Shown here: positions 29,135 to 43,027 of the stretch, piece by piece
How the letters are laid out: each line of letters begins with the position of its first letter
Position numbering within the stretch: position 1 is the first letter of the stretch
Sequence record: PV435126.1
Direction: 5' to 3' (one strand)
Source of the DNA: Escherichia phage EPFV3-03/2025
DNA length: 64,000 nt
The notes under the pieces: model-generated
What the model was told of the DNA's origin: nothing
The model's database searches: none
Seen by the model: the letters and a program-made list of their open reading frames with translations, nothing else
Program-made: the position numbers and the translations under genes

Positions 29135-29431
29135 TTGAAAATCCCTGGCACATCAAGTATAAGGGGGATTTCTAAAATGGATTTCCTCCTTTTGATATTT
29201 TACCTAGCCGGATATTTTAAAATTCCTAGAAAATCAGAAAATGGATCGAAAACTAAAATGGATTTTTTCAAGACAGGCACGATAAGCTGCGCTGCTCATT
29301 CTATCATTCGCACCGTACTCCAAATCACCGTTCCAGATTTTCCGCACACACTCTCGCCCTTCTACCAGAACTTTCCCAACTTACCTTCGGCCTTTTATGA
29401 CAATAAGTTAATTATTATCAGTAAGTTTTGA
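29135..29431 (+). CDS. hypothetical protein (98 aa), doubtful
   Basis: ORF-track ORF with non-ATG start; low-complexity; adjacent to repeat region. Confidence 0.25.
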   Translation: MKIPGTSSIRGISKMDFLLLIFYLAGYFKIPRKSENGSKTKMDFFKTGTISCAAHSIIRTVLQITVPDFPHTLSPFYQNFPNLPSAFYDNKLIIISKF

Positions 29432-29444
29432 TACATCTCTCTCA

Positions 29445-29625
29445 GTACTCGATCTGTTTTTCATTTCAAAGATTGGATTTTCTGAAAAATTTTCTCGATA
29501 AATTTTTCGGTACTCGATCTGTTTTTCGTTTTCTGAATCAGATTTTCTGGAAATCGTTCCGGCGCTCGACCTGAAATTTTTGGGGACGAAATCGATTTTT
29601 CGTTTTCAGAAACGGATTTTTAAAA
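29445..29625. repeat. AT-rich degenerate tandem repeats (about 65-bp unit, 3-4 copies)
   Basis: Units beginning gtactcgatctgtttttc at 29445 and 29510, degenerate copies near 29565 and 29590. Confidence 0.6.
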
Positions 29626-29734
29626 TTTCTATATGGGAATATTTTAGGAGGTATTATTTTATATAGAATTGTCACGGTAGGTAATTAGCATGCTAACTAA
29701 ATTTATGAAATGCGAAAAGTTCTCATTTAGAATT

Positions 29735-29753
29735 TTGAATGATAATCATTCTC
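29735..29753. promoter_or_regulatory. Fur-box-like site 1
   Basis: ttgaatgataatcattctc matches 15/19 of Fur consensus GATAATGATAATCATTATC. Confidence 0.3.
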
Positions 29754-29985
29754 GTTTGCAGAATAACGGGCACCCCCGGTGATTGTCTCCCGGCCCCTAC
29801 TGCCCCGGCTTGTTATTATAGTATCACACAGGACAAAGAAAGCAAGAAGTTTTTGCATAAATTTTTAGACGATAATGATAATCGTTCTCATTTCATGCAG
29901 CGCCCATCCCCGGTGGTTGTCTCCCCCGTCACCGGTGCCTGCCGTCCTTTCGATATGTATATTGTGCCACCTGGCGGGGCCGCTG
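29738..29985. repeat. two copies of an about 110-bp direct repeat (29738-29845 and 29871-29985)
   Basis: Each copy: gataatc(a/g)ttctc..gcag..ccccggtg(a/g)ttgtctccc..tat(t)at..ac. Confidence 0.6.
29871..29889. promoter_or_regulatory. Fur-box-like site 2
   Basis: gataatgataatcgttctc matches 17/19 of Fur consensus; overlaps a possible -10 downstream of TTGCAT 29854-29859. Confidence 0.35.
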
Positions 29986-30102
29986 TCAACACTTTTCAAA
30001 AAAAAAAATTCTAACCTGATGCGCTAACCGCTGCAACCTGGCGGGGCCAGCCTGGTGGGCCTACGCTATAGGATAGGCAACAATTGAAGAGGAGGTACAA
30101 AA

Positions 30103-30279
30103 ATGAAAGGTAATAGGATCCCCCTGGAAAATGTAGCTATTAATAACGCTGAGGCTATCGCCCTGGTTGAAAAGGCTATGGCGGGAGCGTTGGAACATAA
30201 AGAAGAGTACGAAAAAATGATGGTCAACCTAGCAGGGGCGGCGGCTGGAGAATTCTACCCAAAAAATAATTTTAACTAG
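30103..30279 (+). CDS. hypothetical small protein (58 aa)
   Basis: ORF below track cutoff; GAAGAGGAGG upstream of ATG 30103. Confidence 0.4.
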   Translation: MKGNRIPLENVAINNAEAIALVEKAMAGALEHKEEYEKMMVNLAGAAAGEFYPKNNFN

Positions 30280-30282
30280 TGG

Positions 30283-30311
30283 TTGACAGCTCGGACAGTT
30301 TTTGTTATTCT
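30283..30311 (+). promoter_or_regulatory. sigma70-type promoter
   Basis: -35 TTGACA 30283-30288, 17-bp spacer, -10 TATTCT 30306-30311. Confidence 0.45.
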
Positions 30312-30364
30312 TATCCTCGCAAGGTGAACAACACCACACTAATCAACAGAGAGGATAAAAAATC

Positions 30365-30562
30365 ATGAACGCCTACGGAATTAAAGTACGTCGCAGCACT
30401 CGCCAGGTGGTCACCGATCAAATGATTTGCCAGGTGGATGTGACCATCAACAACGGGCAAGGCCTTTATAAATTCCGTCGCGGTCAGAGCTATACCCGGC
30501 AACAGCTTAATCGTTGCGCCCTGACAAAAGGCCAGATCAACCACTGGTTTAATAAAAAATAA
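30365..30562 (+). CDS. hypothetical protein (65 aa)
   Basis: ORF with conserved leader agaggataaaaaatcATG. Confidence 0.5.
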   Translation: MNAYGIKVRRSTRQVVTDQMICQVDVTINNGQGLYKFRRGQSYTRQQLNRCALTKGQINHWFNKK

Positions 30563-30565
30563 GTA

Positions 30566-30594
30566 TTGACATATAGGCCGACACCAAATACACT
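30566..30594 (+). promoter_or_regulatory. sigma70-type promoter
   Basis: -35 TTGACA 30566-30571, 17-bp spacer, -10 TACACT 30589-30594. Confidence 0.45.
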
Positions 30595-30626
30595 AAAAGC
30601 ACAAAAGACACTGAGAGGATAAAATC

Positions 30627-31025
30627 ATGAAAACCACCACCTTTAATTTTGATAATGCGGACTTTTCTTTTTCTGATGTCAATAACTGCCGCCGTGATCG
30701 TGGATTTTACAAGGCCTATAATCTGGTGGGCCTGGATGATGACAATAATTTGCACGAAGTAGCTGAGATCCGGTATTATGCCGCCGCCAGCGGGAACACT
30801 CATTACTGCGTTTTTTGGATACACGACAACAAGAACAATAAGTACGGCTATACTGGCGGCAAGGCGAGCGGACACGGTTATGATAAAGCCAACGCAGCAC
30901 TTGAGAGCGCATTAAATGCTATGGGGATCACTGCCGACGGCTGGATCTACGAAGAAGAGTTTTTGTCGGCACTTGCTGACCGCCTGGGCTATAAAAAGCA
31001 CATTGTGACATGTGCCCACGAATAA
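30627..31025 (+). CDS. hypothetical protein (132 aa)
   Basis: ORF with conserved leader gagaggataaaatcATG. Confidence 0.5.
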   Translation: MKTTTFNFDNADFSFSDVNNCRRDRGFYKAYNLVGLDDDNNLHEVAEIRYYAAASGNTHYCVFWIHDNKNNKYGYTGGKASGHGYDKANAALESALNAMGITADGWIYEEEFLSALADRLGYKKHIVTCAHE

Positions 31026-31031
31026 AAATCA

Positions 31032-31059
31032 TTGACACGCTGCAAAATTCAAGTAAACT
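31032..31059 (+). promoter_or_regulatory. possible sigma70-type promoter
   Basis: -35 TTGACA 31032-31037; -10-like TAAACT 31054-31059; followed by leader hairpin ggcggga..tcccgcc. Confidence 0.35.
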
Positions 31060-31107
31060 AGGCACAAAAGGCGGGAATGTCTCCCGCCAACATAAAGGAA
31101 AAAGATC

Positions 31108-31512
31108 ATGAATAAGAACGTACGCCGCATCATGAACGAGCTGGCAAACGATGAAAAAATTATTGACATGCATTTGATCAACATTTGCCGCCGTTGTGTA
31201 ACATACAACAACCGCGCCGCAAAAGCGCGTGAGATGAACGCAAAAGGCACCTTAAAGCCATTTCAGGTGGTGGTAAAGGCCATTAAAGATGTAACTAATA
31301 CGGCAAACCAGGCACAGGAGAACACCAACGAGAGTACCAATATTGATCCGGCTTACATCATGAAACGGATCCGGATCTGTAAGAATAAAGAGCAGATATA
31401 TAACGTCATAGATTGGTTGGATTCTATGGGCGACGTGGTGTACAACAGGTTTTCTGCAGCTATTGAGATCCAGCTTGACAGGTTGGACGGGAAAGTACTG
31501 AAAACTTATTAA
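31108..31512 (+). CDS. hypothetical protein (134 aa)
   Basis: ORF in small-gene array. Confidence 0.5.
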   Translation: MNKNVRRIMNELANDEKIIDMHLINICRRCVTYNNRAAKAREMNAKGTLKPFQVVVKAIKDVTNTANQAQENTNESTNIDPAYIMKRIRICKNKEQIYNVIDWLDSMGDVVYNRFSAAIEIQLDRLDGKVLKTY

Positions 31513-31513
31513 G

Positions 31514-31559
31514 TTTATTTTTAGATGGCCTTGACTCCAGGGCCATCAATAAAGTAAAC
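31514..31559 (+). repeat. promoter-embedded palindromic repeat, copy 1
   Basis: tttatttttaGATGGCCttgactccagGGCCATCaataaagtaaac; 7-bp inverted repeat flanking TTGACT. Confidence 0.6.
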
Positions 31560-31592
31560 TAGTCTCAACTAAGCGAAAAAGGGGGCTTTAAG

Positions 31593-31712
31593 ATGAGCAC
31601 TACACGCCCATACACAAAGGTAACTATTATCGTTTGCGTTGTCGGTTACATCCTGGCGCAAATGTTAATGAGTAGCGCCAACAGTTTTGCAAAATTTTTC
31701 TTAAATTTTTAA
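31593..31712 (+). CDS. hypothetical small hydrophobic peptide (39 aa)
   Basis: ATG 31593 after AAGGGGG; TIIVCVVGYILAQMLM hydrophobic core; below track cutoff. Confidence 0.35.
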   Translation: MSTTRPYTKVTIIVCVVGYILAQMLMSSANSFAKFFLNF

Positions 31713-31740
31713 TTGACAAGCTAACCCAAATCAGTATACT
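31713..31740 (+). promoter_or_regulatory. sigma70-type promoter
   Basis: -35 TTGACA 31713-31718, 16-bp spacer, -10 TATACT 31735-31740. Confidence 0.55.
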
Positions 31741-31795
31741 TAAACACGTAAACGGGAAAACTTCCCAAAACACAAAAAAAAAAGGAGAAAACACC

Positions 31796-32137
31796 ATGAC
31801 TACTATGACCGCCGCAGAAAAAGCTATGCAGATCGCCGCGCTGAAAAAACAGATCGCAGACCTTGAGAACAAGATCGATAACTTTGAAATCGACGAGGAC
31901 AAGTACGACGAAAACTATGATGACTGGTTAGACGAGATCTACGGCGAAATTATGATCGGTAACATTTCTTTTCTTCCGTCGCGTATCCTCAAGGAGTTAG
32001 ATCCTATCGCTTACCGCTGCGGATTTAGCGACTACATCGACAGCTTGGATATTGAGGACGATGAAGAATATCAAGAATTGCAGGCAGAGCTGGAAGAAGT
32101 GAAAGAGGAGCTTTCAGAGCTGGAAGAAAACGAGTAA
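31796..32137 (+). CDS. hypothetical highly acidic protein (113 aa)
   Basis: Asp/Glu-rich throughout with coiled-coil-like heptads. Confidence 0.5.
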   Translation: MTTMTAAEKAMQIAALKKQIADLENKIDNFEIDEDKYDENYDDWLDEIYGEIMIGNISFLPSRILKELDPIAYRCGFSDYIDSLDIEDDEEYQELQAELEEVKEELSELEENE

Positions 32138-32139
32138 AA

Positions 32140-32185
32140 TTTATTTTTAGATGGCCTTGACTCTAGGGCCATCAATAAAGTAAAC
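32140..32185 (+). repeat. promoter-embedded palindromic repeat, copy 2
   Basis: tttatttttaGATGGCCttgactctagGGCCATCaataaagtaaac; upstream of ORF 32226. Confidence 0.6.
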
Positions 32186-32225
32186 TTTACACTGTTAACA
32201 CTGAACTGATGAGGAGTTAAAACCC

Positions 32226-32471
32226 ATGGCAGCACTAATCACAAAATATTATGCGCCCACCAACACCAAAAGCGCCCGTATCATGGTAAAAGGCTTCGGA
32301 CGTAAAAAGGTTTACGCCTGGGACTATTCCCTAGATATGGAAGACAATTATACCAACGTAATGACCGATTTTATTAATGATCTGAATAAACAGATCTTAA
32401 CCGACTACAAAGTGACCGATATTGCTTACATAGGTGAAGGCGGGATCTGTTTTGTAGGCATTGTGAAATAG
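32226..32471 (+). CDS. hypothetical protein (81 aa)
   Basis: ORF preceded by GAGGAG. Confidence 0.5.
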   Translation: MAALITKYYAPTNTKSARIMVKGFGRKKVYAWDYSLDMEDNYTNVMTDFINDLNKQILTDYKVTDIAYIGEGGICFVGIVK

Positions 32472-32472
32472 T

Positions 32473-32520
32473 TATTTTTTCGGTGGTCCTGGTTGCAGGG
32501 CCATCTATAAAGATAATTTA
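32473..32520 (+). repeat. promoter-embedded palindromic repeat, degenerate copy
   Basis: ttattttttcggtggtcctggttgcagGGCCATCtataaagataattta; upstream of ORF 32548. Confidence 0.4.
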
Positions 32521-32547
32521 TTAACACCATGAAAGGAGAAAGTACAC

Positions 32548-32901
32548 ATGATTAGCGGGGCTAGTTTTATTATTGGCGCTATTGCTACGGCTTTAATTGT
32601 AAACAAGATCCAGGATAAAAAGGAAAGAGGAAGTACCGCCCTTGCAGAATATCCATTTTGGACATTTAACGATAACGAAGATTATATTATAAAGTATAAA
32701 AATAAAGAAGGCGACCAAGTAACACCGCGACCGATCCCGGCTTACAAAATGCAGGAAACACTATACCGCTTGGAGGCGGGGGGCGCAAAAATTGTTGACT
32801 TTTGGGGATACGACCACACAGATCAGGAAGTTATAAAGCGCCGTATCCGGGCTATTCAGGCCAATATTGAGGTTAACAAGGGGGGAATATATGAAAATTA
32901 A
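32548..32901 (+). CDS. hypothetical protein with N-terminal hydrophobic segment (117 aa)
   Basis: MISGASFIIGAIATALIV hydrophobic N-terminus. Confidence 0.5.
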   Translation: MISGASFIIGAIATALIVNKIQDKKERGSTALAEYPFWTFNDNEDYIIKYKNKEGDQVTPRPIPAYKMQETLYRLEAGGAKIVDFWGYDHTDQEVIKRRIRAIQANIEVNKGGIYEN

Positions 32902-33088
32902 TTTCGAGAAAATTGTAAAGCGCCCTCATGATTCCGAAGAGTTGCCAGAACGCCGACAGCGCAACAATAAACTGAATAGGCCAAAAAGGTTTGGGAAGAT
33001 CTGGCGGAATCATTATGATCGTAAATTGCCCGGCCTACTTTTGGAACGTGAACGACAGGCAGAACGATACCGCCATAAAGACAAATAA
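32891..33088 (+). CDS. hypothetical basic protein (65 aa)
   Basis: Start at ATG 32891 after GGGGG; Arg/Lys-rich; followed by terminator. Confidence 0.4.
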   Translation: MKINFEKIVKRPHDSEELPERRQRNNKLNRPKRFGKIWRNHYDRKLPGLLLERERQAERYRHKDK

Positions 33089-33096
33089 CAACCAAC

Positions 33097-33126
33097 GCCC
33101 CGCCATTGTGCGGGGCTTTTTATTTC
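33097..33126 (+). terminator. rho-independent terminator
   Basis: GCCCCGC-cattgt-GCGGGGC stem-loop followed by TTTTTATTT. Confidence 0.75.
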
Positions 33127-33247
33127 TATCCTACGAATAGCGCCCCTGGTTGGCCCTGTAAGCGCCAAAAAGGCCCCCACCTATGCAATCGCCCCCCTTT
33201 AACCTGAAAGCATCGCCTAGGGCCGTTTTATAGCGTTAAAAATATCA

Positions 33248-33275
33248 TTGACATCGTCAACAGGTTAGCTATAAT
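33248..33275 (+). promoter_or_regulatory. sigma70-type promoter (consensus)
   Basis: -35 TTGACA 33248-33253, 16-bp spacer, -10 TATAAT 33270-33275. Confidence 0.6.
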
Positions 33276-33307
33276 AACCACATCAAAGAGAGAAAGGAGT
33301 AAACGCC

Positions 33308-33568
33308 ATGCGTAAATTAAAAAATTTTGATAAAGTTGATGTTATCCTGAATAATTTTTACTACTGCAACAACAAGGCTATTTGGTGGCGTGATAGTTCC
33401 ACCGATAAAGTCAGGGCGCGCTTTCTCCAAGGTCACTGGCAAGGCCGCCCAGTGATTAAAATCATGGGGCAATTGGTAGCGTTTAAAAATTGCCGCCGTG
33501 TTGATGACGTTGAAGAGATTTTAAACATTTTGCGCCACAATAATTTAAAAAATAGTGTTGACAAGTAA
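33308..33568 (+). CDS. hypothetical protein (86 aa)
   Basis: ORF downstream of consensus promoter. Confidence 0.5.
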   Translation: MRKLKNFDKVDVILNNFYYCNNKAIWWRDSSTDKVRARFLQGHWQGRPVIKIMGQLVAFKNCRRVDDVEEILNILRHNNLKNSVDK

Positions 33569-33585
33569 ATCTCAATAAGTATAAT
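33558..33585 (+). promoter_or_regulatory. sigma70-type promoter (consensus)
   Basis: -35 TTGACA 33558-33563, 16-bp spacer, -10 TATAAT 33580-33585; followed by leader hairpin ggcgggaaaacttcccgcc. Confidence 0.6.
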
Positions 33586-33642
33586 TAAACACACAGGCGG
33601 GAAAACTTCCCGCCACTAACAAAGAAAACAGGAGAAAATATC

Positions 33643-34266
33643 ATGACCACCGTTAACATTACCACAGGTTACAATTTACCTTTCGACGTGCTGACCGACG
33701 AACAAAAAGAAAAAGCCATTGAAATGGTACGCGAAAGAGAAGAACACAGCGGGGATAATTTTTTTGCAGAAAGCGTAATTGAACACTATAAAGAATATGT
33801 CTTTCCAGAGTACGGCCTTGAAGATACCGAAGTACATTGGTCCGGCTTTTGGTGTCAAGGCGATGGCGCATCGATCAGTGCTGAAAATGTAGACTTAGAA
33901 AAATTCTTGCGTAAAGTCAAGGCCCTGACCAAGTTCAGATCAATTCGTCACTTGTTCGGCACAATGCACGATGGCGAACTATCCGCCAGTATTGAACGCG
34001 ACAAGTACAGCCATTACAGCCATGAAAACACTGTAAGCGGGTACATTGATACCACATGGCTAGATCTGACCGCTAAACAAGAAAACAAAGTGGAAGACCT
34101 GGAAGAACTGATCACCGAGACGGTACGGGAGCTATCCCGCAAGGTTTACGTAGACCTGGAGCAAGCCTATCTTGAACAATTCACTACCGAAAACCTGATC
34201 GGCCTTATCGAGGCCAATGATTGGCGGTTTGATGTGGATGAATATGGCGAGATGACTTTTTCATAA
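33643..34266 (+). CDS. hypothetical protein (207 aa)
   Basis: ORF downstream of consensus promoter; acidic. Confidence 0.55.
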   Translation: MTTVNITTGYNLPFDVLTDEQKEKAIEMVREREEHSGDNFFAESVIEHYKEYVFPEYGLEDTEVHWSGFWCQGDGASISAENVDLEKFLRKVKALTKFRSIRHLFGTMHDGELSASIERDKYSHYSHENTVSGYIDTTWLDLTAKQENKVEDLEELITETVRELSRKVYVDLEQAYLEQFTTENLIGLIEANDWRFDVDEYGEMTFS

Positions 34267-34274
34267 ATAAAGTG

Positions 34275-34302
34275 TTGCAATAACCTAAAAACCTGCTATA
34301 TT
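34275..34302 (+). promoter_or_regulatory. sigma70-type promoter
   Basis: -35 TTGCAA 34275-34280, 16-bp spacer, -10 TATATT 34297-34302; leader hairpin gggggcaagacgtttgccccc follows. Confidence 0.45.
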
Positions 34303-34356
34303 AAAACTCAAGGGGGCAAGACGTTTGCCCCCACACAAAACAAAGAGGAAAACATC

Positions 34357-34737
34357 ATGAAAAACACTACTAAAGCTATTGACACCGTCATGTTTAACCT
34401 GGTTACCTTTCGCGAGGATATGAAAGATCTTCCACGTGAAACAGTGTGCGATCACATTGAAAACTATCGCAAACTAATCAAAGAGTTGCCTTTAAAACGT
34501 GATCAGTATGCGGCTAATGCCATGCTTAATGCCATGATCAAAAAGATGATCCAGTGTGATTTAACTCTGGCCTATGACTATGCGGGTGGTCGTTTTGCAG
34601 TATACAATCAGCCCGTGCCAGGTATGGGCACCACCGAAGAATTGCACGCGCTCAATCTAAAACAAGACGTGTGGGATAGTATGCCTCGCGTGGTGGTGTG
34701 GGCAGAAAGCGGAAAGATTTACGGCGATAATTTTTAA
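34357..34737 (+). CDS. hypothetical protein (126 aa)
   Basis: ORF followed by intrinsic terminator. Confidence 0.5.
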   Translation: MKNTTKAIDTVMFNLVTFREDMKDLPRETVCDHIENYRKLIKELPLKRDQYAANAMLNAMIKKMIQCDLTLAYDYAGGRFAVYNQPVPGMGTTEELHALNLKQDVWDSMPRVVVWAESGKIYGDNF

Positions 34738-34746
34738 TCAGGTAAC

Positions 34747-34773
34747 AGGCGGCATATTTGCCGCCTTATTGTT
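34747..34773 (+). terminator. rho-independent terminator
   Basis: AGGCGGC-atattt-GCCGCCT stem-loop followed by TATTGTT. Confidence 0.6.
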
Positions 34774-34801
34774 AAACAGAACTGCAAAAGAGGTACATAG
34801 A

Positions 34802-35173
34802 ATGGAATTTATTATTTTGGCTGTATTGGTTGCCTTGTTTAACGCCTGGATCGCTGGCAAGATGGGTAGATCCGCCTTTTTATGGTTTATTATATCTATT
34901 TTCCTGGGGGTGGTTGCAACTATTGTATTGGTTATCCTTGCAATTGTTGACAAGGGGAATAATAGAAAGGGTAAAGTATTTTCAGACCTGTACGACGCTC
35001 AAACGTTTGTCAACGCCTATTATAGTGATCTTCCGGTCTCCTTGCGTTGCAGCCTTGCACAACAAGTTTTCGATGAAGCTAAAACCAGAGATCAAGCCCA
35101 TGAGATATGTTTAACTGAGGCGGATCGCCTATTTGAGAGGAATAGAAAATATGTGGGCCAACCGTTTAAATAA
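34802..35173 (+). CDS. hypothetical membrane protein (123 aa)
   Basis: Start at ATG 34802 (ORF-track start lies in terminator); two hydrophobic helices. Confidence 0.5.
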   Translation: MEFIILAVLVALFNAWIAGKMGRSAFLWFIISIFLGVVATIVLVILAIVDKGNNRKGKVFSDLYDAQTFVNAYYSDLPVSLRCSLAQQVFDEAKTRDQAHEICLTEADRLFERNRKYVGQPFK

Positions 35174-35396
35174 TGCCATGTTAATTAATCCCTTTAGTGA
35201 AGATTTGAAGCCAGCCGCCTGGCGTGACGGATTCAATAACGAACGCTTTATTTTCAGGCCTGATCTTGAGGAATTTTATAACAATGGATCGAACAACAGC
35301 GGAGATAATTTTTCTTGTGATGTGCGTGGTGATGGTACTCCTGGGGGCCATTGTAAACCACGTCACTACTACCAGAAGGGAAGGGGGAGACGATGA
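35151..35396 (+). CDS. hypothetical protein (81 aa)
   Basis: Start at ATG 35151 after GAGAGG; overlaps upstream gene end. Confidence 0.4.
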   Translation: MWANRLNNAMLINPFSEDLKPAAWRDGFNNERFIFRPDLEEFYNNGSNNSGDNFSCDVRGDGTPGGHCKPRHYYQKGRGRR

Positions 35397-35512
35397 CACC
35401 CAAGGATAAGCCCCGCACCGATAAGGTGCGCCGCGTTATGGTATGGCTTGAGATTATCGCCCTTGAAATATTGCTGGGCGTAGGGATGTACTTTATCGCT
35501 GTAAGTAACTAA
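35393..35512 (+). CDS. hypothetical small membrane peptide (39 aa)
   Basis: ATGA overlap with upstream stop; VMVWLEIIALEILLGVGMYFIAV; followed by terminator. Confidence 0.35.
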   Translation: MTPKDKPRTDKVRRVMVWLEIIALEILLGVGMYFIAVSN

Positions 35513-35516
35513 GAAC

Positions 35517-35543
35517 GGCCCCCGATCATGGGGGCCTATCTTT
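35517..35543 (+). terminator. rho-independent terminator
   Basis: GGCCCCC-gatcat-GGGGGCC stem-loop followed by TATCTTT. Confidence 0.65.
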
Positions 35544-35648
35544 AAAAAAAATTCTTCCGGGGTGTTGCAATCCGGTCCGGAATGTGGATAATAACAATCA
35601 ACGGGGAGCTAATCCCCACCACCACAAAAACCAGAAAGGAGAAACAAA

Positions 35649-35849
35649 ATGAGCAACAATATCCGCGTTATTAACTTCAAAAAAGAAGAAAAAATTGCCG
35701 TGCTGATTGACGGTCAAGAAATCTTCAAGGGCGACTATGAAGATCATCAAACGGCGATTAGTATCACTCGCGTAATTGGTTATCATAATTTCTACCCCCA
35801 AGGCGCTGAGGCAGCAGTTAAACGAATCAAAGAGATTGTAGGCCTGTAA
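35649..35849 (+). CDS. hypothetical protein (66 aa)
   Basis: ORF preceded by AAGGAG. Confidence 0.5.
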   Translation: MSNNIRVINFKKEEKIAVLIDGQEIFKGDYEDHQTAISITRVIGYHNFYPQGAEAAVKRIKEIVGL

Positions 35850-35851
35850 AA

Positions 35852-35897
35852 TTTATTTTTAGATGGCCTTGACTTCAGGGCCATCAATAAAGTAAAT
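35852..35897 (+). repeat. promoter-embedded palindromic repeat, copy 3
   Basis: tttatttttaGATGGCCttgacttcagGGCCATCaataaagtaaat; upstream of ORF 35941. Confidence 0.6.
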
Positions 35898-35940
35898 TTA
35901 AACCCTGTTAAAATAATCAGTGCAAAAAGGAGCAATGATC

Positions 35941-36240
35941 ATGTTTATACCCGCCAATAATCTTTATTTCTTTGATGGTCAGATCGTAGACGGCGTGGAA
36001 GTTGAGATCACTGGGTGCCTCGGCGGTCAGGTTATGACTTTTCGGAATAATGCCTTTGATGATTCTCGTATCGTTATGAGAATGGAAGTTACGAAGCTGG
36101 ACGACAAGAAAGTACTTATTGACTATTCTGTGAAAGATCATCCAGACTACCACATGATCTATGGTGATTTGTGCATTGTTGACCGTGACAAAGTGGGCGG
36201 CATTGTGATCGCTATTGTGAACGATGTTTTCTCTGTATAG
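35941..36240 (+). CDS. hypothetical protein (99 aa)
   Basis: Start at ATG 35941, 8 nt after AAGGAG. Confidence 0.5.
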   Translation: MFIPANNLYFFDGQIVDGVEVEITGCLGGQVMTFRNNAFDDSRIVMRMEVTKLDDKKVLIDYSVKDHPDYHMIYGDLCIVDRDKVGGIVIAIVNDVFSV

Positions 36241-36301
36241 TTCCGGCAAATGATGCAAAATAAGGCCCCTAGCAGGGCCTGCAGCGATATAATCACATAA
36301 A

Positions 36302-36332
36302 GGCTATGCGGTTGCATGGCCTTTATTATTTT
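36302..36332 (+). terminator. rho-independent terminator
   Basis: GGCTATGC-ggtt-GCATGGCC stem-loop followed by TTTATTATTTT. Confidence 0.6.
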
Positions 36333-36464
36333 AGCGTTACAGCGGCCCCCAAGGCGCTTAAAAATTCTTTAAAGAAGTACTTGCATCAAGCCCTACAATA
36401 TGGATAATAGGACGTGTCAGGGGGGCGGCCCCAATCATTAACCGGATAGATAGGAGTTAAAACC

Positions 36465-36749
36465 ATGGCTATTGTTACCGCTGGCGATGTAGTAGAAATG
36501 GAAGCAAAATACTTAAAAGCGGGTATGCATATCTTACGGAATGATCAAGAGTTATTATTAACGATGGTCGACTATAATCCCGGCCAGGATTATCCAAGCA
36601 TCGACTACTTTTTTGAGTATGTTGATGAAGAATTAAAAGAGGATGAGGCCTATTGCGGTGAGTTCTGCAATTTCTTTTGTCCTGATGAGGTTGTAAAGGT
36701 TATCTATCAACCTGGCGTAGCTTTCCCGCTGCACGCTATCAATAAATAA
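36465..36749 (+). CDS. hypothetical protein (94 aa)
   Basis: ORF preceded by TAGGAG. Confidence 0.5.
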   Translation: MAIVTAGDVVEMEAKYLKAGMHILRNDQELLLTMVDYNPGQDYPSIDYFFEYVDEELKEDEAYCGEFCNFFCPDEVVKVIYQPGVAFPLHAINK

Positions 36750-36814
36750 ACCTGGCGGGGCCGAAAAGGCCCCTACAGCATAAAATCATAAAAAATAAAG
36801 AGAGGCAAATCATC

Positions 36815-37048
36815 ATGATGGAACAAATTAAACGCGCTGAGGCTATTAATGGCAATGTGATCTATTTTGTCAGCAAAAACGAAAAAGGCGTACCATATGC
36901 GGCGGTAATAGTACAGCCTGACGGAGATTATTGGTTTACTGTATACGGATCTTATTCTTTTGGGCGTCCAGTGCATGATAAAATTTTGAAAGTAGCGAAC
37001 CCCACCGGGAAGAATATCACGGCAGAAAAATTTTTTGAAAAGTGTTGA
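36815..37048 (+). CDS. hypothetical protein (77 aa)
   Basis: ORF with leader aagagaggcaaatcatcATG. Confidence 0.5.
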   Translation: MMEQIKRAEAINGNVIYFVSKNEKGVPYAAVIVQPDGDYWFTVYGSYSFGRPVHDKILKVANPTGKNITAEKFFEKC

Positions 37049-37075
37049 CATGACCATATAAAACTGTAGTATATA
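37045..37075 (+). promoter_or_regulatory. possible sigma70-type promoter
   Basis: -35 TTGACA 37045-37050; -10-like TATATA 37070-37075 with long spacer. Confidence 0.3.
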
Positions 37076-37123
37076 AATCAAAGGGGGCAACAAGCCCCAC
37101 CAACCACAAAGAGGATAAAAATC

Positions 37124-37303
37124 ATGGCTATTATTGCAAAAACTGAGATCGTAGGCTTAGATTCTATTCTCCTCGCATATGAGGAAGCTATAGAAATGTA
37201 TGTGGTTTCCTATGGTGAGTATATCCGTGAATATAAATCTATTGATCTGGCTTTTGAATGTTATATTCGCCAGGTAAATAAAGCATATGATGATTATCGT
37301 TAA
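37124..37303 (+). CDS. hypothetical protein (59 aa)
   Basis: ATG 37124 with leader aaagaggataaaaatcATG; below track cutoff. Confidence 0.45.
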   Translation: MAIIAKTEIVGLDSILLAYEEAIEMYVVSYGEYIREYKSIDLAFECYIRQVNKAYDDYR

Positions 37304-37394
37304 AATAGTTTGGCAACAAACAACCATCTAACAAAGCATAATACATAAGGTGGTAGAATGATCCTCCACCCGGAACAAAGAAGAGGTAAACACC

Positions 37395-37640
37395 ATGAAA
37401 AGCAATAAAGGTTATAACGGTTACAAAAACAAAACTCATTGGAATGTAAGCCTTTGGATTAATAACGATGAGTCATTGTACCGGTTGGCCCAAAGCTTTA
37501 TTAACGCTAATGCTAATCGTAATGATGCGGCGCGGGATATGATGCTTTTTCTGGAGCTAACCGGACAAGATAAGACCCCGGACGGCTTCAAGTACAGCAC
37601 TACGGCGATCCGCGCCGCTATGGTTGGAATGAAACACTAA
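37395..37640 (+). CDS. hypothetical protein (81 aa)
   Basis: ORF with leader agaggtaaacaccATG. Confidence 0.5.
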   Translation: MKSNKGYNGYKNKTHWNVSLWINNDESLYRLAQSFINANANRNDAARDMMLFLELTGQDKTPDGFKYSTTAIRAAMVGMKH

Positions 37641-37824
37641 TAGCCGCCTTACCCTGGGGCCGTGGCAGCGGCCCTATGAATAAGGTTACTAACAGAAGAG
37701 AATAAACACCATGAAACAAAAATTAATTGATGCTGTGATCCTGGTTATTGCCCTGGGTATTGGCCTGATTGCAACCATGGCTAATGTGATCTTGTCTTCC
37801 AACGGTATCGGGTGAGGTTGACAA

Positions 37825-38040
37825 ATGATCACTAACAAAACAGGCAAAACAGAATTTTTACGCAACTTACAGATCGGCAAGCCTGAGATCTGGTACTGCA
37901 CTAAAACACCGCGTGACGAAATGAAAGACTTCACCGCCACGCTGAAGCGGGTAAAGATATCCATTACGCAGAAAAAAGCCTTGATAGTGGTGGAAGGTGA
38001 GATCCCTCAAGCCGTTGTTATAGTTGAGCGTACAGCATAG
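37825..38040 (+). CDS. hypothetical protein (71 aa)
   Basis: ORF in small-gene array. Confidence 0.45.
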   Translation: MITNKTGKTEFLRNLQIGKPEIWYCTKTPRDEMKDFTATLKRVKISITQKKALIVVEGEIPQAVVIVERTA

Positions 38041-38129
38041 TTTAATCTATACCGTACGCCCCATTAACTAACAAAGCATAAACAGGCGGCGGTAACCGCC
38101 TTAAACGCAGCAGAAAGAGGATAGACAAC

Positions 38130-38414
38130 ATGAAAAAGATGATCGCAGTGGTTGCCCTGGTTATTGGACTTAATGCGCCTGTAATGGCTAAAGAGCTGGC
38201 AAAAGAGGTAGATCTAACTGATATCCATGCCGTCAATCAAATCGGTGTTACTTATCGGTTATGCCTTGCCGCAAAAACTTTCCAGGACGGCACAACAGAG
38301 TACTACGGATTCGAAGGCATCCGGTGCGGTGAGCTTGCTCGCGACCTTAAGGAAGATCCAGACCTGGAGGATCTGCCGATAACCGTAAACGGGAAAACTT
38401 ACGTGAACCGTTAA
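38130..38414 (+). CDS. hypothetical secreted protein (94 aa)
   Basis: Signal-peptide-like N-terminus MKKMIAVVALVIGLNAPVMA. Confidence 0.5.
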   Translation: MKKMIAVVALVIGLNAPVMAKELAKEVDLTDIHAVNQIGVTYRLCLAAKTFQDGTTEYYGFEGIRCGELARDLKEDPDLEDLPITVNGKTYVNR

Positions 38415-38416
38415 CC

Positions 38417-38551
38417 ATGAGAAAGATAATTATTACCATGGGGATCGTGGCGGCAATGTTGGCGATCTTTCCCTTTATGGTTAGGTATGTGCTGATCGGT
38501 GTTGTCCTGGTAGTCAGCGATCTGGTGTTATATATTAACTCATTGTTTTAG
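38417..38551 (+). CDS. hypothetical small membrane peptide (44 aa)
   Basis: ATG 38417 immediately after upstream stop; single hydrophobic helix. Confidence 0.35.
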   Translation: MRKIIITMGIVAAMLAIFPFMVRYVLIGVVLVVSDLVLYINSLF

Positions 38552-38559
38552 GTGCGATA

Positions 38560-38751
38560 ATGACAGCAGAAGAAGTTAAAAAAGTACTGGCGGTACTGCG
38601 TTATCATAATCATTGCAAGGTGAAGAATGATCCTGATTATCTTGATTCATCCCTTGAAGAGGATACACTACAAGCCATAAGCAACATGCAAGAATTGCTT
38701 AAGCGTATGACAGAGAAAAACCGACCGGACTATATAGGCGAAAAAGTATAA
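38560..38751 (+). CDS. hypothetical protein (63 aa)
   Basis: ORF in small-gene array. Confidence 0.45.
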   Translation: MTAEEVKKVLAVLRYHNHCKVKNDPDYLDSSLEEDTLQAISNMQELLKRMTEKNRPDYIGEKV

Positions 38752-38880
38752 TCTTTATAAACCATAAAACAGGGCTTGTAATGGTCCTGTTTTTTGTTAT
38801 ACTTGTTTCACGGGTGGCACCTGGCGACGGGGGGAGACAATCACCGGTGGTGCCTGTTATATAAAAAACTATAAAAACCG

Positions 38881-38909
38881 TTGACATCTGCCAGGTGGTG
38901 GGGTAACAT
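38881..38909 (+). promoter_or_regulatory. sigma70-type promoter
   Basis: -35 TTGACA 38881-38886, 17-bp spacer, -10 TAACAT 38904-38909. Confidence 0.45.
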
Positions 38910-38963
38910 TTATCTTGAAGGGGCAAAAGTGCCCACACAACAACCAGAAGAGAGGAAAACGCC

Positions 38964-39236
38964 GTGTCAAGCTGGATTAACCAAGAAGTCGAATCACGTT
39001 TTAATGCTATTTGGGATCTCATCGAAAAAGAGGACGGAACATCAAGCCCCTACCTTAATAATCTTGAATTCCATTTTGTGGAAGCGATGAACGCAGAACA
39101 TGATCACGAAGGCGGCGCGGATGAGTTCGCTAAAGGGTATGGCTTCACCAATGCCAACGAAATGATCGAGGCGGTTGTACTCCAGGCTGAGGAAGATTAT
39201 CAATTAAAAACACTTGAATTTTGCCGCCGTAAGTAA
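38964..39236 (+). CDS. hypothetical protein (90 aa)
   Basis: GTG start after AGAGAGG. Confidence 0.45.
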   Translation: MSSWINQEVESRFNAIWDLIEKEDGTSSPYLNNLEFHFVEAMNAEHDHEGGADEFAKGYGFTNANEMIEAVVLQAEEDYQLKTLEFCRRK

Positions 39237-39297
39237 TAAGATAATGACACGGGCCAAAAGGCCCACCAAACCAGAACCCCATAAAGAGGTAAACATC

Positions 39298-39561
39298 ATG
39301 AAACGTCTTGATCAGCTCAAACTAGTTCAGTACATGGCCTACAAAGTTCTTGAAGTCCAAAAAGGTAGCAAAAAAGAGGTTTGCGAGAAAGCATATAAGA
39401 TCTTTACCCGTAAAAAAGATGATTGGATGTTACGCCAGACCAAAAAGGCTGACATCTTGGGGTACCTGGAAGAAGAGATCCGGCTTGAAGAGCAAGAAGA
39501 GATCCGCCGCAGTGAGGCAGATTATCAGGCAGCTTGGGAAAGCTGGATGAGCAACAAATAA
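39298..39561 (+). CDS. hypothetical protein (87 aa)
   Basis: Start at ATG 39298 with leader aagaggtaaacatcATG. Confidence 0.5.
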   Translation: MKRLDQLKLVQYMAYKVLEVQKGSKKEVCEKAYKIFTRKKDDWMLRQTKKADILGYLEEEIRLEEQEEIRRSEADYQAAWESWMSNK

Positions 39562-39628
39562 TACAACAAGTTACGGTCAGGGGGGGCAATAAAGCCCCTT
39601 GATCACATAAAAATTATGCTATCCCTGG

Positions 39629-39657
39629 TTGACAGGGATCGGCAGTTTTGCTATATT
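39629..39657 (+). promoter_or_regulatory. sigma70-type promoter
   Basis: -35 TTGACA 39629-39634, 17-bp spacer, -10 TATATT 39652-39657. Confidence 0.55.
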
Positions 39658-39706
39658 CTTTTTTGAAGGGAAGTTGTAAGAAAATTAACTAAGAGGTAAA
39701 AACACC

Positions 39707-40126
39707 ATGAACATTAAATCTAATAATCCGGCATATAGCTTTGATAACGCTTTTTGTCACGGTCCGGCGGCGAAAGGATTCGAAATCGATGGTAAACTAA
39801 TTATTGTCAATGTTGACGGGGAAGAGGTTGCAGTATATCCGGTGGCAGACGTTAAAAGCCGTCTACAATGCCGCATGGATGTTACCGCCTATCAGCTTGA
39901 TCCGGTCCGCATAGTTGCCCTGGTCCTGGAAGAAGAAATTAAAGCAATGCACCACAGCAACAAGTTTATTGGTGACGCTCAAGATAATATGAAGGTATGC
40001 CGCCATAAAGTTAATGAAGTGCTTAAAGAATATGGCTTTAAAGATCTGATGATCAAACGTGAGGAAAAATTCCGCTACCGTAACGACCTGGCAAATCGGA
40101 TTTTTGAAATATACGAATCATTATAA
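39707..40126 (+). CDS. hypothetical protein (139 aa)
   Basis: Last gene of plus-strand block; followed by terminator. Confidence 0.55.
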   Translation: MNIKSNNPAYSFDNAFCHGPAAKGFEIDGKLIIVNVDGEEVAVYPVADVKSRLQCRMDVTAYQLDPVRIVALVLEEEIKAMHHSNKFIGDAQDNMKVCRHKVNEVLKEYGFKDLMIKREEKFRYRNDLANRIFEIYESL

Positions 40127-40144
40127 TTTTTTAACTGAATTATC

Positions 40145-40170
40145 AAGGGGCTTAGGCCCCTTTCTTTTTG
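40145..40170 (+). terminator. rho-independent terminator
   Basis: AAGGGG-cttagg-CCCCTT stem-loop followed by TCTTTTTG. Confidence 0.65.
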
Positions 40171-40779
40171 TCTGCTCTTCCCCATACCATAAACGGCCCT
40201 ACCTGACAAGTGGAATAATTGACGAGCCATCAATCCCGCACACTGTACAAATATACATGTAAAATAGCTATTGCATAACCTTTCATTGTGTGGTAGCGGT
40301 GCTATTTTTACCCGTTTTCTCTCCCAAAATTGCACGTAATGCAGCTATTGCACAAAATTTAACCTGATGCACATCTTCAGTATACTGTCAACAATTAAAA
40401 ATCTTTATAAGTCATACACTTACACAAACCAAAAAGCGTGTCCTACGTGAAAAATCGGGTGTAACTATAGCCGACAGATCTCAGAATCCACGTACAATCA
40501 CCATTCTATAGCCTGCAAAGTATTTATTCCAACCACAGAATAACGGAATAGTCAATACTTGTATAAAATAATTATTCGTGTAAACTGCATAACATAAATC
40601 TTCTCATGTGTCAACATTTTTCGTAAACAGTCCGAAATTGTCACGATAGGTTACTATAATCAGAGAAATCTTTAGTCGTCTAATGTTTACTGTACATAAC
40701 TATACTGACTGGAATCATTAGATGACTAAGAGAAAGATAAGAAATAATTAACAATGTAATTGTTTTATCTGCAACAATA

Positions 40780-41170
40780 AGGCAACTATGCAAACGAATG
40801 GCATGGCGCGACGGAGTCGCGACATAATATAAAAGCAGTAACCATCACCCCCGTGATAGTTTGTCTGCAATCTATTAATCAGATCATAGTTGCCTTGTAT
40901 TTAGTTAATCATGACATAACAAGCAGGGCAACTATAGATCTTCTAATAGTTGCCCTGCTTTTATATTATGTCATATATTATTAACTTGTCAATTGTCACC
41001 TTGCTAATTGTTTTCATGCAAACGAATGTCATGGCTTATCATCTCTGTGTAAACTGTCAATGTGTAAACAGTCTACGCAGGAACAATCTATACGTGAACA
41101 GTGAAACATGAAATAATAACAGTCGTTATTGTGTCGAAAGTGTCGTATTGTGTGACATTGTGTCAGACAA
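40780..41170. repeat. iteron/inverted-repeat cluster in non-coding region
   Basis: GGCAACTAT motif 4 times (40782, 40887 rc, 40927, 40946 rc) incl. perfect 15-bp inverted repeat 40921-40935/40946-40960; direct repeats tgcaaacgaatgNcatggc (40790, 41015), gtgtaaacNgtc x2, TTGTGTC x4. Confidence 0.7.
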
Positions 41171-42907: not shown

Positions 42908-43027
42908 AAAATCTCCTCTGGGAATGAGAGTGTGAACAGGATTATACGTTCCAATGCACTGGAATTTATATACGTTTGCCTCTTCAGGCCATGCTTTAGC
43001 ATGATAAACTTGTGTGGGCTCGGTGCT

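Follow-up and report, generated by a model that had tools for sequence, protein, structure and literature searches.

Layout of the gene array

Our window, the whole 64,000-nt stretch analysed (PV435126.1, Escherichia phage EPFV3-03/2025), shares 92-95% identity with rV5-like phages (Vequintavirus). Between positions 30103 and 40126 we called 29 genes, g01 to g29, all on the + strand like every feature described below, with products of 34-207 aa (median 81). In rV5, the equivalent stretch is annotated as ORF164-197. All 29 match a PHROG family, which indicates that they are real, conserved phage genes; the first-pass annotation had counted about 30 small genes. Gaps of at least 55 nt separate 22 of the 28 neighbouring pairs, versus 10 of 38 in the upstream part of the array's own transcription unit; these 22 gaps, together with the spacer preceding g01, make up the 23 long spacers analysed here. 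Hairpins followed by a T run occur at only five sites in the block and all mark unit ends, giving five terminator-bounded units: g01-09, g10-15, g16-17, g18-26 and g27-29.

A repeated cassette precedes most genes

A unit consisting of a promoter, a GC hairpin, a CA-rich leader and a ribosome-binding site is repeated before most genes. Promoters were scored as matches of at least 9/12 to TTGACA/TATAAT with the -10 ending 25-65 nt before the ATG. By this measure, 14 of 23 long spacers contain a correctly placed sigma70-type promoter, versus 0.84 ± 0.91 in dinucleotide shuffles, and nine of the 23 reach 10/12 (0.15 expected). The near-consensus promoters described in the first-pass annotation thus hold up, although its statement that most genes have their own does not, the share being about half. 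Promoter-like sites of equal quality are equally frequent outside the block, at 20-28 kb. Tracts upstream of the promoters are 82% A+T, compared with 57% for the whole window.

Perfect stems with at least four G-C pairs were found in 19 of 23 long spacers (4.8 ± 1.7 in shuffles), so leader hairpins are indeed frequent, as had been noted; the example given then, ggcgggaaaacttcccgcc, lies at 33596-33614 in the g11 cassette. In eight cassettes of the main type (type A), the hairpin starts 8-11 nt past the -10. The sequence separating hairpin from Shine-Dalgarno contains, summed over the eight clearest cassettes, 71 A, 34 C, 4 G and 3 T, or 94% A+C, as expected from the CA-rich tract first described. 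The proposed common initiation region is also borne out: start regions share the consensus AAGAGGAnAAAnAnC-ATG-A, and C occupies position -1 in 20 of 29 array genes versus 3 of 39 upstream genes of the array's unit (Fisher p = 1.7e-7). The type A order is an A/T-rich tract, the sigma70 -35 and -10, 8-11 nt, a perfect GC hairpin, the ~94% A+C tract, AAGAGGA, an A-rich spacer ending in C, and ATG. In type B, a repeat of 48-61 nt present in four copies, the hairpin encloses the -35. The promoters of g02, g03 and g10 lack a hairpin, and four hairpins, before g13, g19, g22 and g29, have no recognisable promoter.

Features along the array

The first gene, g01 (30103-30279, 58 aa, PHROG 21957), has a strong Shine-Dalgarno, AGGAGGT; no promoter of its own was found in its 75-nt spacer. 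The g02 promoter (30283-30311, TTGACA-17-TATTCT, TG) is followed by a CA-rich leader without a strong hairpin and by the CDS at 30365-30562 (65 aa, pI 10.7). Likewise, g03 (CDS 30627-31025, 132 aa) follows a promoter at 30566-30594 (TTGACA-17-TACACT) without a hairpin. Type A begins with g04 (31032-31512; promoter 31032-31059, hairpin 31070-31088 at 10 nt past the -10, CDS 31108-31512, 134 aa). Next, g05 (31513-31712) carries the first copy of the type B repeat (family D1), with the hairpin at 31524-31547 around the -35 of promoter 31531-31560 and a CDS at 31593-31712 for a membrane-like 39-aa product. The type A cassette of g06 (31713-32137; repeat family D5) combines promoter 31713-31740, a weak hairpin GGGAAAACTTCCC at 31753-31765 and an A/C-rich leader with a CDS at 31796-32137 (113 aa, pI 4.05). 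Repeat copy 2, also type B, serves g07 (32138-32471; hairpin 32150-32173, promoter 32157-32186, CDS 32226-32471, 81 aa). A degenerate type B cassette heads g08 and g09 (32472-33088); its -35 is lost and its hairpin (32482-32505) is maintained via G-T pairs. The product of g08 (32548-32901, 117 aa) has an N-terminal membrane segment, and the overlapping g09 (32891-33088, 65 aa) belongs to the T7 gp1.1 family (Phage_1_1, 9.5e-10). Terminator 1 (33097-33116) has 7 G-C pairs followed by TTTTTATTT.

Consensus promoters (12/12) precede both g10 (33248-33568; promoter 33248-33275, no hairpin, CDS 33308-33568, 86 aa) and the type A gene g11 (33558-34266; promoter 33558-33585, the hairpin named above, CDS 33643-34266, 207 aa). 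Also of type A, g12 (34275-34737) has promoter 34275-34302 (TTGCAA-16-TATATT, TG), hairpin 34312-34332 and CDS 34357-34737 (126 aa). Directly past its stop, a promoterless hairpin (34747-34766) opens the g13-g15 segment (34747-35512), in which g13 (34802-35173, 123 aa, membrane) overlaps g14 (35151-35396, 81 aa), which in turn overlaps g15 (35393-35512, 39 aa, membrane). Terminator 2 lies at 35517-35536. The third unit holds the type A gene g16 (35565-35849; promoter 35565-35592, TTGCAA-16-GATAAT; hairpin GGGGAGCTAATCCCC at 35603-35617; CDS 35649-35849, 66 aa) and the type B gene g17 with repeat copy 4 (35850-36240; hairpin 35862-35885, promoter 35869-35898, CDS 35941-36240, 99 aa). Terminator region 3 (36263-36326) comprises hairpins at 36263-36280 and 36297-36326.

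In the fourth unit, g18 is type A (36381-36749; promoter 36381-36408, TTGCAT-16-GATAAT; short hairpin 36420-36432; CDS 36465-36749, 94 aa). Hairpin 36757-36773 and an A-rich leader, without a promoter, lead to g19 (36757-37048; CDS 36815-37048, 77 aa), followed by type A g20 (37045-37303; promoter 37045-37072, hairpin 37084-37098, CDS 37124-37303, 59 aa). The type A cassette of g21 (37310-37640) has a damaged promoter, TTGGCA with a 21-nt spacer to CATAAT (37337-37342), then hairpin 37349-37370 and a CDS at 37395-37640 (81 aa, DUF7249). A promoterless hairpin at 37655-37676 precedes g22 (37711-37815, 34 aa, membrane) and g23 (37825-38040, 71 aa), the segment spanning 37655-38040. The g24 cassette, with a -10-like CATAAA and hairpin 38084-38101, heads a segment at 38066-38751 containing g24 (38130-38414, 94 aa, signal-peptide-like), g25 (38417-38551, 44 aa, membrane) and g26 (38560-38751, 63 aa). 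Terminator 4 (38766-38793) has an 11-bp stem and then TTTTTTGTT.

The last unit starts with type A g27 (38881-39236; promoter 38881-38909, hairpin 38921-38934, CDS 38964-39236 with a GTG start, 90 aa). A weak promoter (39214-39242), hairpin 39251-39264 and a CA-rich leader precede g28 (39214-39561; CDS 39298-39561, 87 aa). Finally, in the g29 segment (39581-40126) a promoterless hairpin (39581-39600) is followed by a hairpin at 39621-39639 around the -35 of promoter 39629-39657 (TTGACA-17-TATATT, TG) and by the CDS at 39707-40126 (139 aa). Terminator 5 (40145-40162) ends the array.

Gene turnover among relatives

An equal design is found in Phapecoctavirus REC (promoters in 20 of 24 spacers, 17 hairpins, modal distance 10 nt) and in the jumbo Asteriusvirus phAPEC6 (29 of 37 promoters, 16 hairpins at 8-14 nt). 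REC has 10 of the 29 array genes in common and phAPEC6 has 7, both in scrambled order. Among close relatives, rV5 lacks g21, with the junction within the shared start region, and relatives have either a replacement or nothing in the g21 slot. In addition, rV5 carries an extra gene with a direct copy of the g28 leader on either side. In HdK5, g29 is missing, and a chimera of the terminator 5 hairpin and hairpin 39581-39600 is present. An additional 351-nt gene stands directly before terminator region 3 in 6 of 10 relatives. Of the roughly six differences in gene content that were seen, only three have junctions in cassette repeats (leader or hairpin). Across ten relatives the hairpin stems are conserved, and the loops are variable or flipped.

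Possible roles of the hairpins

We folded eleven cassettes with the transcription start assumed at the seventh nucleotide past the -10. Seven had 2-5 unpaired 5' nucleotides, a figure that rests on the assumed start since we found no mapped transcription start for any Vequintavirus in the literature, and the Shine-Dalgarno was unpaired in most. Structures at the 5' end are known to protect mRNA from RppH and RNase E (PMC3997798). We infer a mechanism that combines early firing, a 5' cap and recombination linkers. Judging from the consensus matches, host RNA polymerase with sigma70 would initiate at many cassettes early in infection. Type A transcripts would start 2-5 nt before the hairpin and carry a 5'-terminal stem-loop, which may cap the mRNA; in E. 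coli, stem-loops of this sort impede attack by RppH and by RNase E acting from the 5' end. The leader, poor in G and U, is predicted to be unpaired and would thereby leave the strong ribosome-binding site open. Being repeated, the cassettes could recombine with one another and so delete, insert or swap single genes, as the observed junctions suggest.

The four promoterless hairpins cannot cap the 5' end of a primary transcript. They lie directly past a stop codon, as do the type B hairpins relative to the upstream gene, and several array hairpins are annotated 'putative transcriptional terminator' in HdK5. This is what would be expected if the hairpins were attenuators or terminators that damp upstream read-through, leaving each gene mainly on its own promoter. 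Such was the original model for the promoter-early stem-loop (PeSL) cassettes of T4-like phages, whose authors measured terminator activity for one RB49 stem-loop (PMC2839356). However, A/C-rich sequence with no T run follows type A and type B hairpins, and the five sites that do combine hairpin and T run are already unit ends. Moreover, each type A hairpin comes after the promoter of its cassette, where an efficient terminator would halt the cassette's own transcript. We consider this role unlikely for the array.

Alternatively, the inverted repeats might act as DNA, either as operators at which a phage protein switches off the early promoters or as preferred targets of a recombination enzyme. 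Their position, about +3 to +21, is one at which protein binding would obstruct RNA polymerase, and the arm GGGAA/TTCCC is common to many of them within and across phages. Three hairpins, and probably a fourth, are exact reverse complements in some relatives, which would leave a palindromic operator unchanged and shows that the arms recombine; one deletion has its junction within a hairpin. Yet the stems differ widely within the phage (GGCGGGAA, GGGGGCAA, GGGGAG, GGGCC...) and are ill-suited to one sequence-specific binder, and searches of Pfam, PHROGs and NCBIfam identified no candidate DNA-binding protein among the products. Isolated non-Watson-Crick stem positions comprise 14 G-T and 4 A-C (p = 0.03, a weak test since related hairpins are not independent), an excess that favours pairing in the sense-strand RNA. 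In a covariation test on 41 aligned cassettes, stems of unequal length fell out of register. A role at the DNA level appears improbable, and a 5' cap remains our preferred reading for type A.

Gene products

The products match the character first ascribed to them: a membrane- or signal-like segment is present in seven of the 29, and pI values span 4.05-10.75. Only two pass the Pfam cut-off, g09 (T7 gp1.1 family) and g21 (DUF7249), and neither is an enzyme, in line with the reported lack of recognisable enzymatic motifs. Searches of Pfam, PHROGs and NCBIfam linked none of the 29 to a family whose function is known, and three of the longest (g03, g11 and g29) have no match among PDB sequences. 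For g11, the largest, the predicted structure is confident (pLDDT 86.7), and fold comparison gave no significant match.

Regions of this kind are where T4-like phages carry their genes for host takeover and anti-defence. The block could be a gene set of this sort, its cassettes serving fast, strong expression as infection begins. Consistent with such a set are the early-type promoters, the strong ribosome sites, accessory genes that are small, fast-changing and common to unrelated coliphages, the T7 early protein 1.1 relative, and the seven small membrane or secreted proteins. Against this, no product matches a known-function family, and the sole predicted structure (g11) found no informative fold match. 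We regard this identity as tentative, somewhat short of even odds, and compatible with the other readings; an anti-defence role of the products is a plausible guess, not a result.

Relation to known systems

Taken together, the sigma70-type host promoters, A/T-rich upstream tracts, small ORFans and gene content that varies between close relatives support an early-type accessory region. Our overall reading, that the block is a variable region of early accessory genes in an rV5-like phage, built from PeSL-like cassettes with the capping and linker mechanism, has a probability of roughly 0.6.

Consensus host-type promoters had already been listed for members of the Vequintavirinae, namely rV5 (PMC3606486) and Certrevirus CB7/CR3 (PMC7344957), and those of CB7/CR3 were noted to be concentrated in a stretch of short hypothetical ORFs that was taken as the early region (PMC7344957). 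Neither PMC3606486 nor PMC7344957 describes a leader hairpin, a fixed hairpin position, a CA-rich tract, a shared start region or cassette-mediated shuffling. Like the ompA/papA 5' stem-loop stabilisers of E. coli (PMC3997798), the array cassettes have a stable hairpin a few nucleotides from the 5' end (for the array, from the assumed start) and then an open ribosome-binding region. The array hairpins are shorter and form a repeated family.

Morons of lambdoid phages and integron cassettes are single accessory genes with local expression signals, added or lost as units. The array resembles both in that accessory genes act as units carrying or using local expression signals. Morons differ in that they are not thought to move via flanking signals, and integrons in using an integrase and attC sites, whereas no recombinase is known for the array, in which short repeats of regulatory sequence seem to serve as the substrate.

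Among known systems, the PeSL of T4-like RB49/phi1 comes closest; it is also found in PST/T4 and nt-1/KVP40 (Arbiol et al. 2010, PMC2839356; Comeau et al. 2014, PMC4122927). Both comprise an A/T-rich tract, a sigma70-type early promoter, a GC stem-loop (often GGGG...CCCC), a CA-rich leader and a shared Shine-Dalgarno/ATG region; both are concentrated in variable regions beside small ORFans, and gain/loss junctions between close relatives fall within the cassette. The elements are of the same kind, but their sequences are not homologous (0 blastn-short hits to RB49 cassettes), and the phages that carry PeSLs belong to a different subfamily from rV5-like phages. Mini-circles and terminator activity belong to the PeSL side of the comparison, the array cassettes being known from sequence. 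In RB49 the stem-loop mostly occupies the -35/-10 spacer or covers the -10, whereas the array hairpin mostly begins 8-11 nt past the -10, and would thus be transcribed at the mRNA 5' end, or encloses the -35. The array is therefore a real and tidy case of a design already known from T4-like phages rather than a new kind of system, and its architecture, a mobile regulatory cassette of known type, informs on expression and gene shuffling more than on protein roles.

Results

A delimited array of small genes with long spacers

The 10-kb block is 92-95% identical to sequences in more than 50 rV5-like Escherichia coli phages of the genus Vequintavirus. We called 29 plus-strand genes (g01-g29) between 30103 and 40126, encoding products of 34-207 aa (median 81), in agreement with the roughly 30 small genes initially annotated there. 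All 29 have a PHROG match and are therefore real, conserved genes. The rV5 counterpart of the block is ORF164-ORF197, all annotated as 'hypothetical protein', over which the rV5 annotation places six sigma70-type promoters and two terminators. These genes form the far end of rV5's long leftward transcription unit (genes 10-1-238-164), which begins with rIIB, helicases, methylases, primase, and DNA polymerase.

Within the block, 22 of the 28 intergenic gaps measure 55 nt or more (median 78), compared with 10 of 38 (median 13.5) for upstream genes of the same transcription unit (p = 5e-5). Together with the spacer before g01, these gaps make up the 23 long spacers used in all spacer statistics. 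Terminators consisting of a hairpin and a T run, at 33097, 35517, 36297, 38766, and 40145, split the block into five units, and at the head of every unit stand a long spacer and a strong promoter. A tRNA search found none. On its 3′ side, the block is followed by a terminator, a long stretch without annotated genes, and then genes on the opposite strand.

Promoters, hairpins, and leaders form a repeated cassette

When the long spacers were searched for promoters matching TTGACA/TATAAT at 9/12 or better, the -10 element ending 25-65 nt before the ATG, 14 of the 23 contained one, whereas 0.84 ± 0.91 were expected from shuffles under the same criterion. At a match of at least 10/12, nine spacers remained (0.15 expected), and two promoters matched at 12/12. 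The 20 nt upstream of -35 average 82% A+T across 15 promoters, versus 57% for the window. The first-pass annotation had given most genes a promoter of their own; good promoters do occur well above chance, but for about half of the genes rather than most. Outside the block, at 20-28 kb, equally good promoter-like sites are also common, and these come without the hairpin, the CA-rich leader, or the shared start region. A strict promoter-plus-hairpin scan returned seven cassettes in the block and three in the remaining 54 kb; outside the block, cassettes of the same layout lie at 12513-12600 and 12926-13000 (+) and at 48546 (-). The g20 promoter region (37031-37050) has a perfect 20-nt inverted copy at 29984-30003, just before the block, which creates a promoter-like site in divergent orientation on the minus strand (29989..29961; TTGACA-17-CACAAT, including TG).

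Perfect hairpins containing four or more G-C pairs occurred in 19 of the 23 spacers, as opposed to 4.8 ± 1.7 in shuffles. The cassettes fall into two layouts. In type A, which precedes g04, g11, g12, g16, g18, g20, g27, and g28 and, in weaker form, g06, g21, and g24, the promoter is followed after 8-11 nt by a GC hairpin (4-9 bp stem, 3-5-nt loop), an A/C tract, and the ribosome site. Type B is a 48-61-nt repeat present in four copies, before g05, g07, g08, and g17, in which the hairpin GATGGCC...GGGCCATC surrounds -35; the layout of the g29 promoter resembles it. Four hairpins, before g13, g19, g22, and g29, lack a promoter, and three promoters, those of g02, g03, and g10, lack a hairpin. From hairpin to Shine-Dalgarno sequence, the A/C tract of the eight clearest cassettes contains 71 A and 34 C against 4 G and 3 T. 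The start region follows the consensus AAGAGGAnAAAnAnC-ATG-A across the block, with C at -1 in 20/29 block genes versus 3/39 upstream genes (p = 1.7e-7). The GC hairpin, CA-rich tract, and shared initiation region that the first-pass annotation had described are thus all borne out by these counts. The array is real, statistically solid, and well delimited, an origin by chance or artefact being ruled out by the shuffle controls and the comparison with upstream genes.

We considered other identities for the hairpins. As intrinsic (rho-independent) terminators they should be followed directly by a T run; none follows the type A or type B leader hairpins, this combination occurring only at the five unit-end sites, which on sequence speaks against the assignment. 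Because the hairpins have a good sigma70 promoter upstream, we also set aside DNA-hairpin promoters of the N4 type, which a virion RNA polymerase uses. A whole-window Rfam search at gathering thresholds assigned no known RNA family to the cassettes. Its only match lies elsewhere, a group I intron (RF00028, 64.7 bits, E = 4e-14) at 20527-20762 (+) in the DNA polymerase region, the start of which coincides with the end of a 1132-aa ORF (17144-20542). An attempt at covariation analysis (MAFFT, 41 cassettes, RNAalifold) recovered a 4-bp core only, stems of different length being misaligned.

The type A hairpin is predicted to lie at the mRNA 5′ end

With transcription assumed to start at the seventh nucleotide after -10, predicted folds leave 2-5 unpaired 5′ nucleotides in 7 of 11 cassettes, and in most of these the remaining leader, including the Shine-Dalgarno sequence, is unpaired. 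Stem-loops at the 5′ end have long been known as stabilizing, which is accounted for by the requirement of RppH and the RNase E 5′ sensor for a single-stranded 5′ end (PMC3997798). Given this requirement and the 2-5 nt predicted before the hairpin, the most likely role of the type A hairpin, with the start site assumed, is to shield the 5′ end of the transcript; the G/U-poor tract would keep the ribosome site open. Across three phages, isolated non-Watson-Crick stem positions comprise 14 G-T and 4 A-C pairs (p = 0.03), a bias that is expected if pairing of the sense-strand RNA matters and that lends modest support to this role. In the literature on Vequintavirinae, we found no transcriptome or start-site map.

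Gene products

All 29 PHROG families are of 'unknown function', and neither Pfam nor, for the ten longest products, NCBIfam placed any product in a family of known function. A PDB sequence search for g03, g11, and g29 likewise gave no family of known function, and g11 had no fold match. As for the host-takeover or anti-defence role initially proposed, the same searches (Pfam, PHROGs, NCBIfam, PDB sequences, and the g11 fold) gave no match to a characterized family of either kind. The product of g09 (32891-33088) falls in the phage T7 early protein 1.1 family (Pfam Phage_1_1, 9.5e-10), a T7-type early gene inside an rV5-like myovirus.

Gene gains and losses among close relatives, some with junctions inside cassettes

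Comparison of ten Vequintavirus genomes revealed about six differences, three of which have their junctions inside a cassette. First, rV5 lacks g21, with the junction inside the shared start region (gaagagg.aaaca..ATGAAA). Second, rV5 carries an extra gene, ORF166, flanked by two direct copies of the g28 leader. Third, HdK5 lacks g29, and the hairpin at the junction is chimeric, combining the hairpins at 39581-39600 and 40145-40162. Two differences lie away from cassette repeats, namely a gene of 351 nt following g17 and another gene following g26. The slot between g20 and g22 (37310-37640) is a replacement hot spot, occupied by g21 (DUF7249) here, empty in rV5, and filled by other small genes in DrSchubert, HdK5, and A51.2. 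The alternative genes each bring their own TTGACA promoter, 11-nt gap, GC hairpin, and ribosome site. The g21 promoter is damaged here (TTGGCA, 21-nt spacer) relative to TTGACA-17-CATAAT in SophiaRose.

In the orthologue hairpin comparison, from which the rows for g06, g16, and g21 were excluded, stems are conserved and loops vary. The hairpins of g11 (33596-33614), g12 (34312-34332), and g24 (38084-38101) occur as the exact reverse complement in some relatives, as probably does that of g04 (31070-31088). Since the loop is flipped while the stem stays the same, the comparison shows that the loop sequence is free of selection, and the flips suggest that the hairpin arms recombine with each other or undergo template switching. 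Among database records, 23 labelled 'Campylobacter phage' (MG0656xx) match this E. coli phage region, at ∼92-93% DNA identity and 98-99% identity for the g27 protein among the matches listed; they are probably mislabelled or contaminant assemblies.

The flanking non-coding stretches have features of their own. Just before the block, a Fur-box-like sequence, GATAATGATAATCGTTCTC (29871-29889), differs from the E. coli Fur consensus at two positions (0.04 such matches expected in the window), with two looser copies at 29735-29753 and 41481-41500; it could place a phage promoter under iron-responsive control. A GC-rich motif, GGGAGACAAYCACCGG, occurs three times, twice before the block (29763-29791 and 29905-29927, both -) and once before g27 (38830-38860, +), each time downstream of a promoter-like site. 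It has no Rfam match, a permissive Rfam search of 29300-30150 was empty, and its predicted folding is no more than weakly better than that of shuffles. Also upstream of the block, a T-rich repeat of ∼65 nt stands in three tandem copies at 29435-29620. At the other end, the long region 40200-43000, between convergent transcription units, has no convincing genes and several short direct and inverted repeats, and many relatives' records start or end nearby; the genome map in the rV5 paper also has a 'non-coding' box (PMC3606486).

The cassette design extends beyond the genus

Phapecoctavirus REC follows the same design more strictly, with TTGACA-16-TAAnAT in 20 of 24 spacers and a hairpin in 17, most often exactly 10 nt after -10. 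In the jumbo Asteriusvirus phAPEC6, 37 spacers contain 29 promoters, and there are 16 hairpins at distances of 8-14 nt. Homologues of the 29 block genes number 10 in the REC array and 7 in the phAPEC6 array, in scrambled order. The g21 coding sequence has 80-85% DNA identity to several jumbo Asteriusvirus phages, and the similarity ends at the gene boundaries. Cassette style is uniform in REC (GTATCACATAG-GGGCGGGAA...) and in phAPEC6 (GTTTTACATAG-AGGGGGAA...). Because each phage has its own style, the genes appear to move while the linkers are resident, and this uniformity, as read from the genomes, suggests concerted evolution of the cassettes within each genome. The comparison shows that the design is common to several unrelated large coliphages.

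Discussion

Tentatively, with a probability of about 0.3 for the reading as a whole, the unit of promoter, hairpin at +3-5, and CA-rich leader may be a common module for early-gene expression and exchange in unrelated large virulent coliphages. Its users may include Vequintavirinae, Phapecoctavirus, and jumbo Asteriusvirus, with RB49-like phages having it in another layout. Each genome may maintain a single cassette style of its own, and single ORFans may pass between arrays by recombination at short shared stretches of promoter, hairpin, or start site. The hairpin itself may have two roles, capping the mRNA 5′ end against host decay and, in line with the loop flips, acting as a recombination hot spot.

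In these arrays, small regulatory cassettes would drive early ORFans and let them be shuffled, and the shared design points to a general strategy by which large virulent coliphages organize and exchange accessory genes. From the constant position of the hairpin comes a simple, testable idea of how early phage mRNAs could evade host decay. In practical terms, the cassettes would serve as compact, strong, and portable units of expression, and they mark where to seek accessory, possibly anti-defence, genes in therapeutic phages of this group.

Work on rV5 (PMC3606486) and Certrevirus (PMC7344957) already lists sigma70-type promoters, which in Certrevirus cluster in the short-ORF region (PMC7344957); the hairpin, CA-rich leader, shared start region, and cassette-mediated shuffling are unmentioned in these papers (PMC3606486; PMC7344957). 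The closest known element is the promoter-early stem-loop (PeSL) cassette of the T4-like phages RB49 and phi1, composed of an A/T-rich tract, a sigma70 early promoter, a GC stem-loop, and a ribosome site (PMC2839356; PMC4122927). PeSLs sit beside ORFans in variable regions, mediate indels, and form mini-circles (PMC2839356; PMC4122927). Apart from a passing mention in PMC5931544, PeSLs appeared in the literature searched only in studies of T4-like phages and cyanophage.

Of the PeSL features compared, six recur in the block cassettes and one, sequence homology, does not. PeSL stem-loops are also credited with terminator or attenuator activity; in sequence, the type A and type B hairpins have no T run behind them. 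The block has sigma70-consensus early promoters (14/23 spacers), an A/T-rich tract (82% A+T upstream of 15 promoters), a stable GC-rich stem-loop after -10 (type A) or around -35 (type B), and a conserved leader whose 3′ end carries the Shine-Dalgarno sequence and start codon (AAGAGGAnAAAnAnC-ATG). It also shares the preference for variable, ORFan-adjacent regions (7 versus 3 in the other 54 kb) and the indel junctions inside the cassette (three of the six or so differences in the ten-genome comparison). Read directly, RB49 cassettes too combine a CA-rich leader with a shared start region, AGGAGAATCAAA-ATG; most of their stem-loops, however, are placed between -35 and -10 or overlap -10. Neither the block spacers (blastn-short, against 50 kb of RB49 including the PeSL-rich region) nor the 29 block proteins (against a 50-kb RB49 stretch) gave a match. 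Since sequence similarity is absent and hairpin placement differs, the block cassettes and RB49 PeSLs are, as judged from sequence, the same kind of element from different lineages. The block is best regarded as an array of PeSL-like cassettes for early ORFans rather than as a new class of system, and it carries the PeSL idea from T4-like phages to rV5-like phages, Phapecoctavirus, and a jumbo phage.
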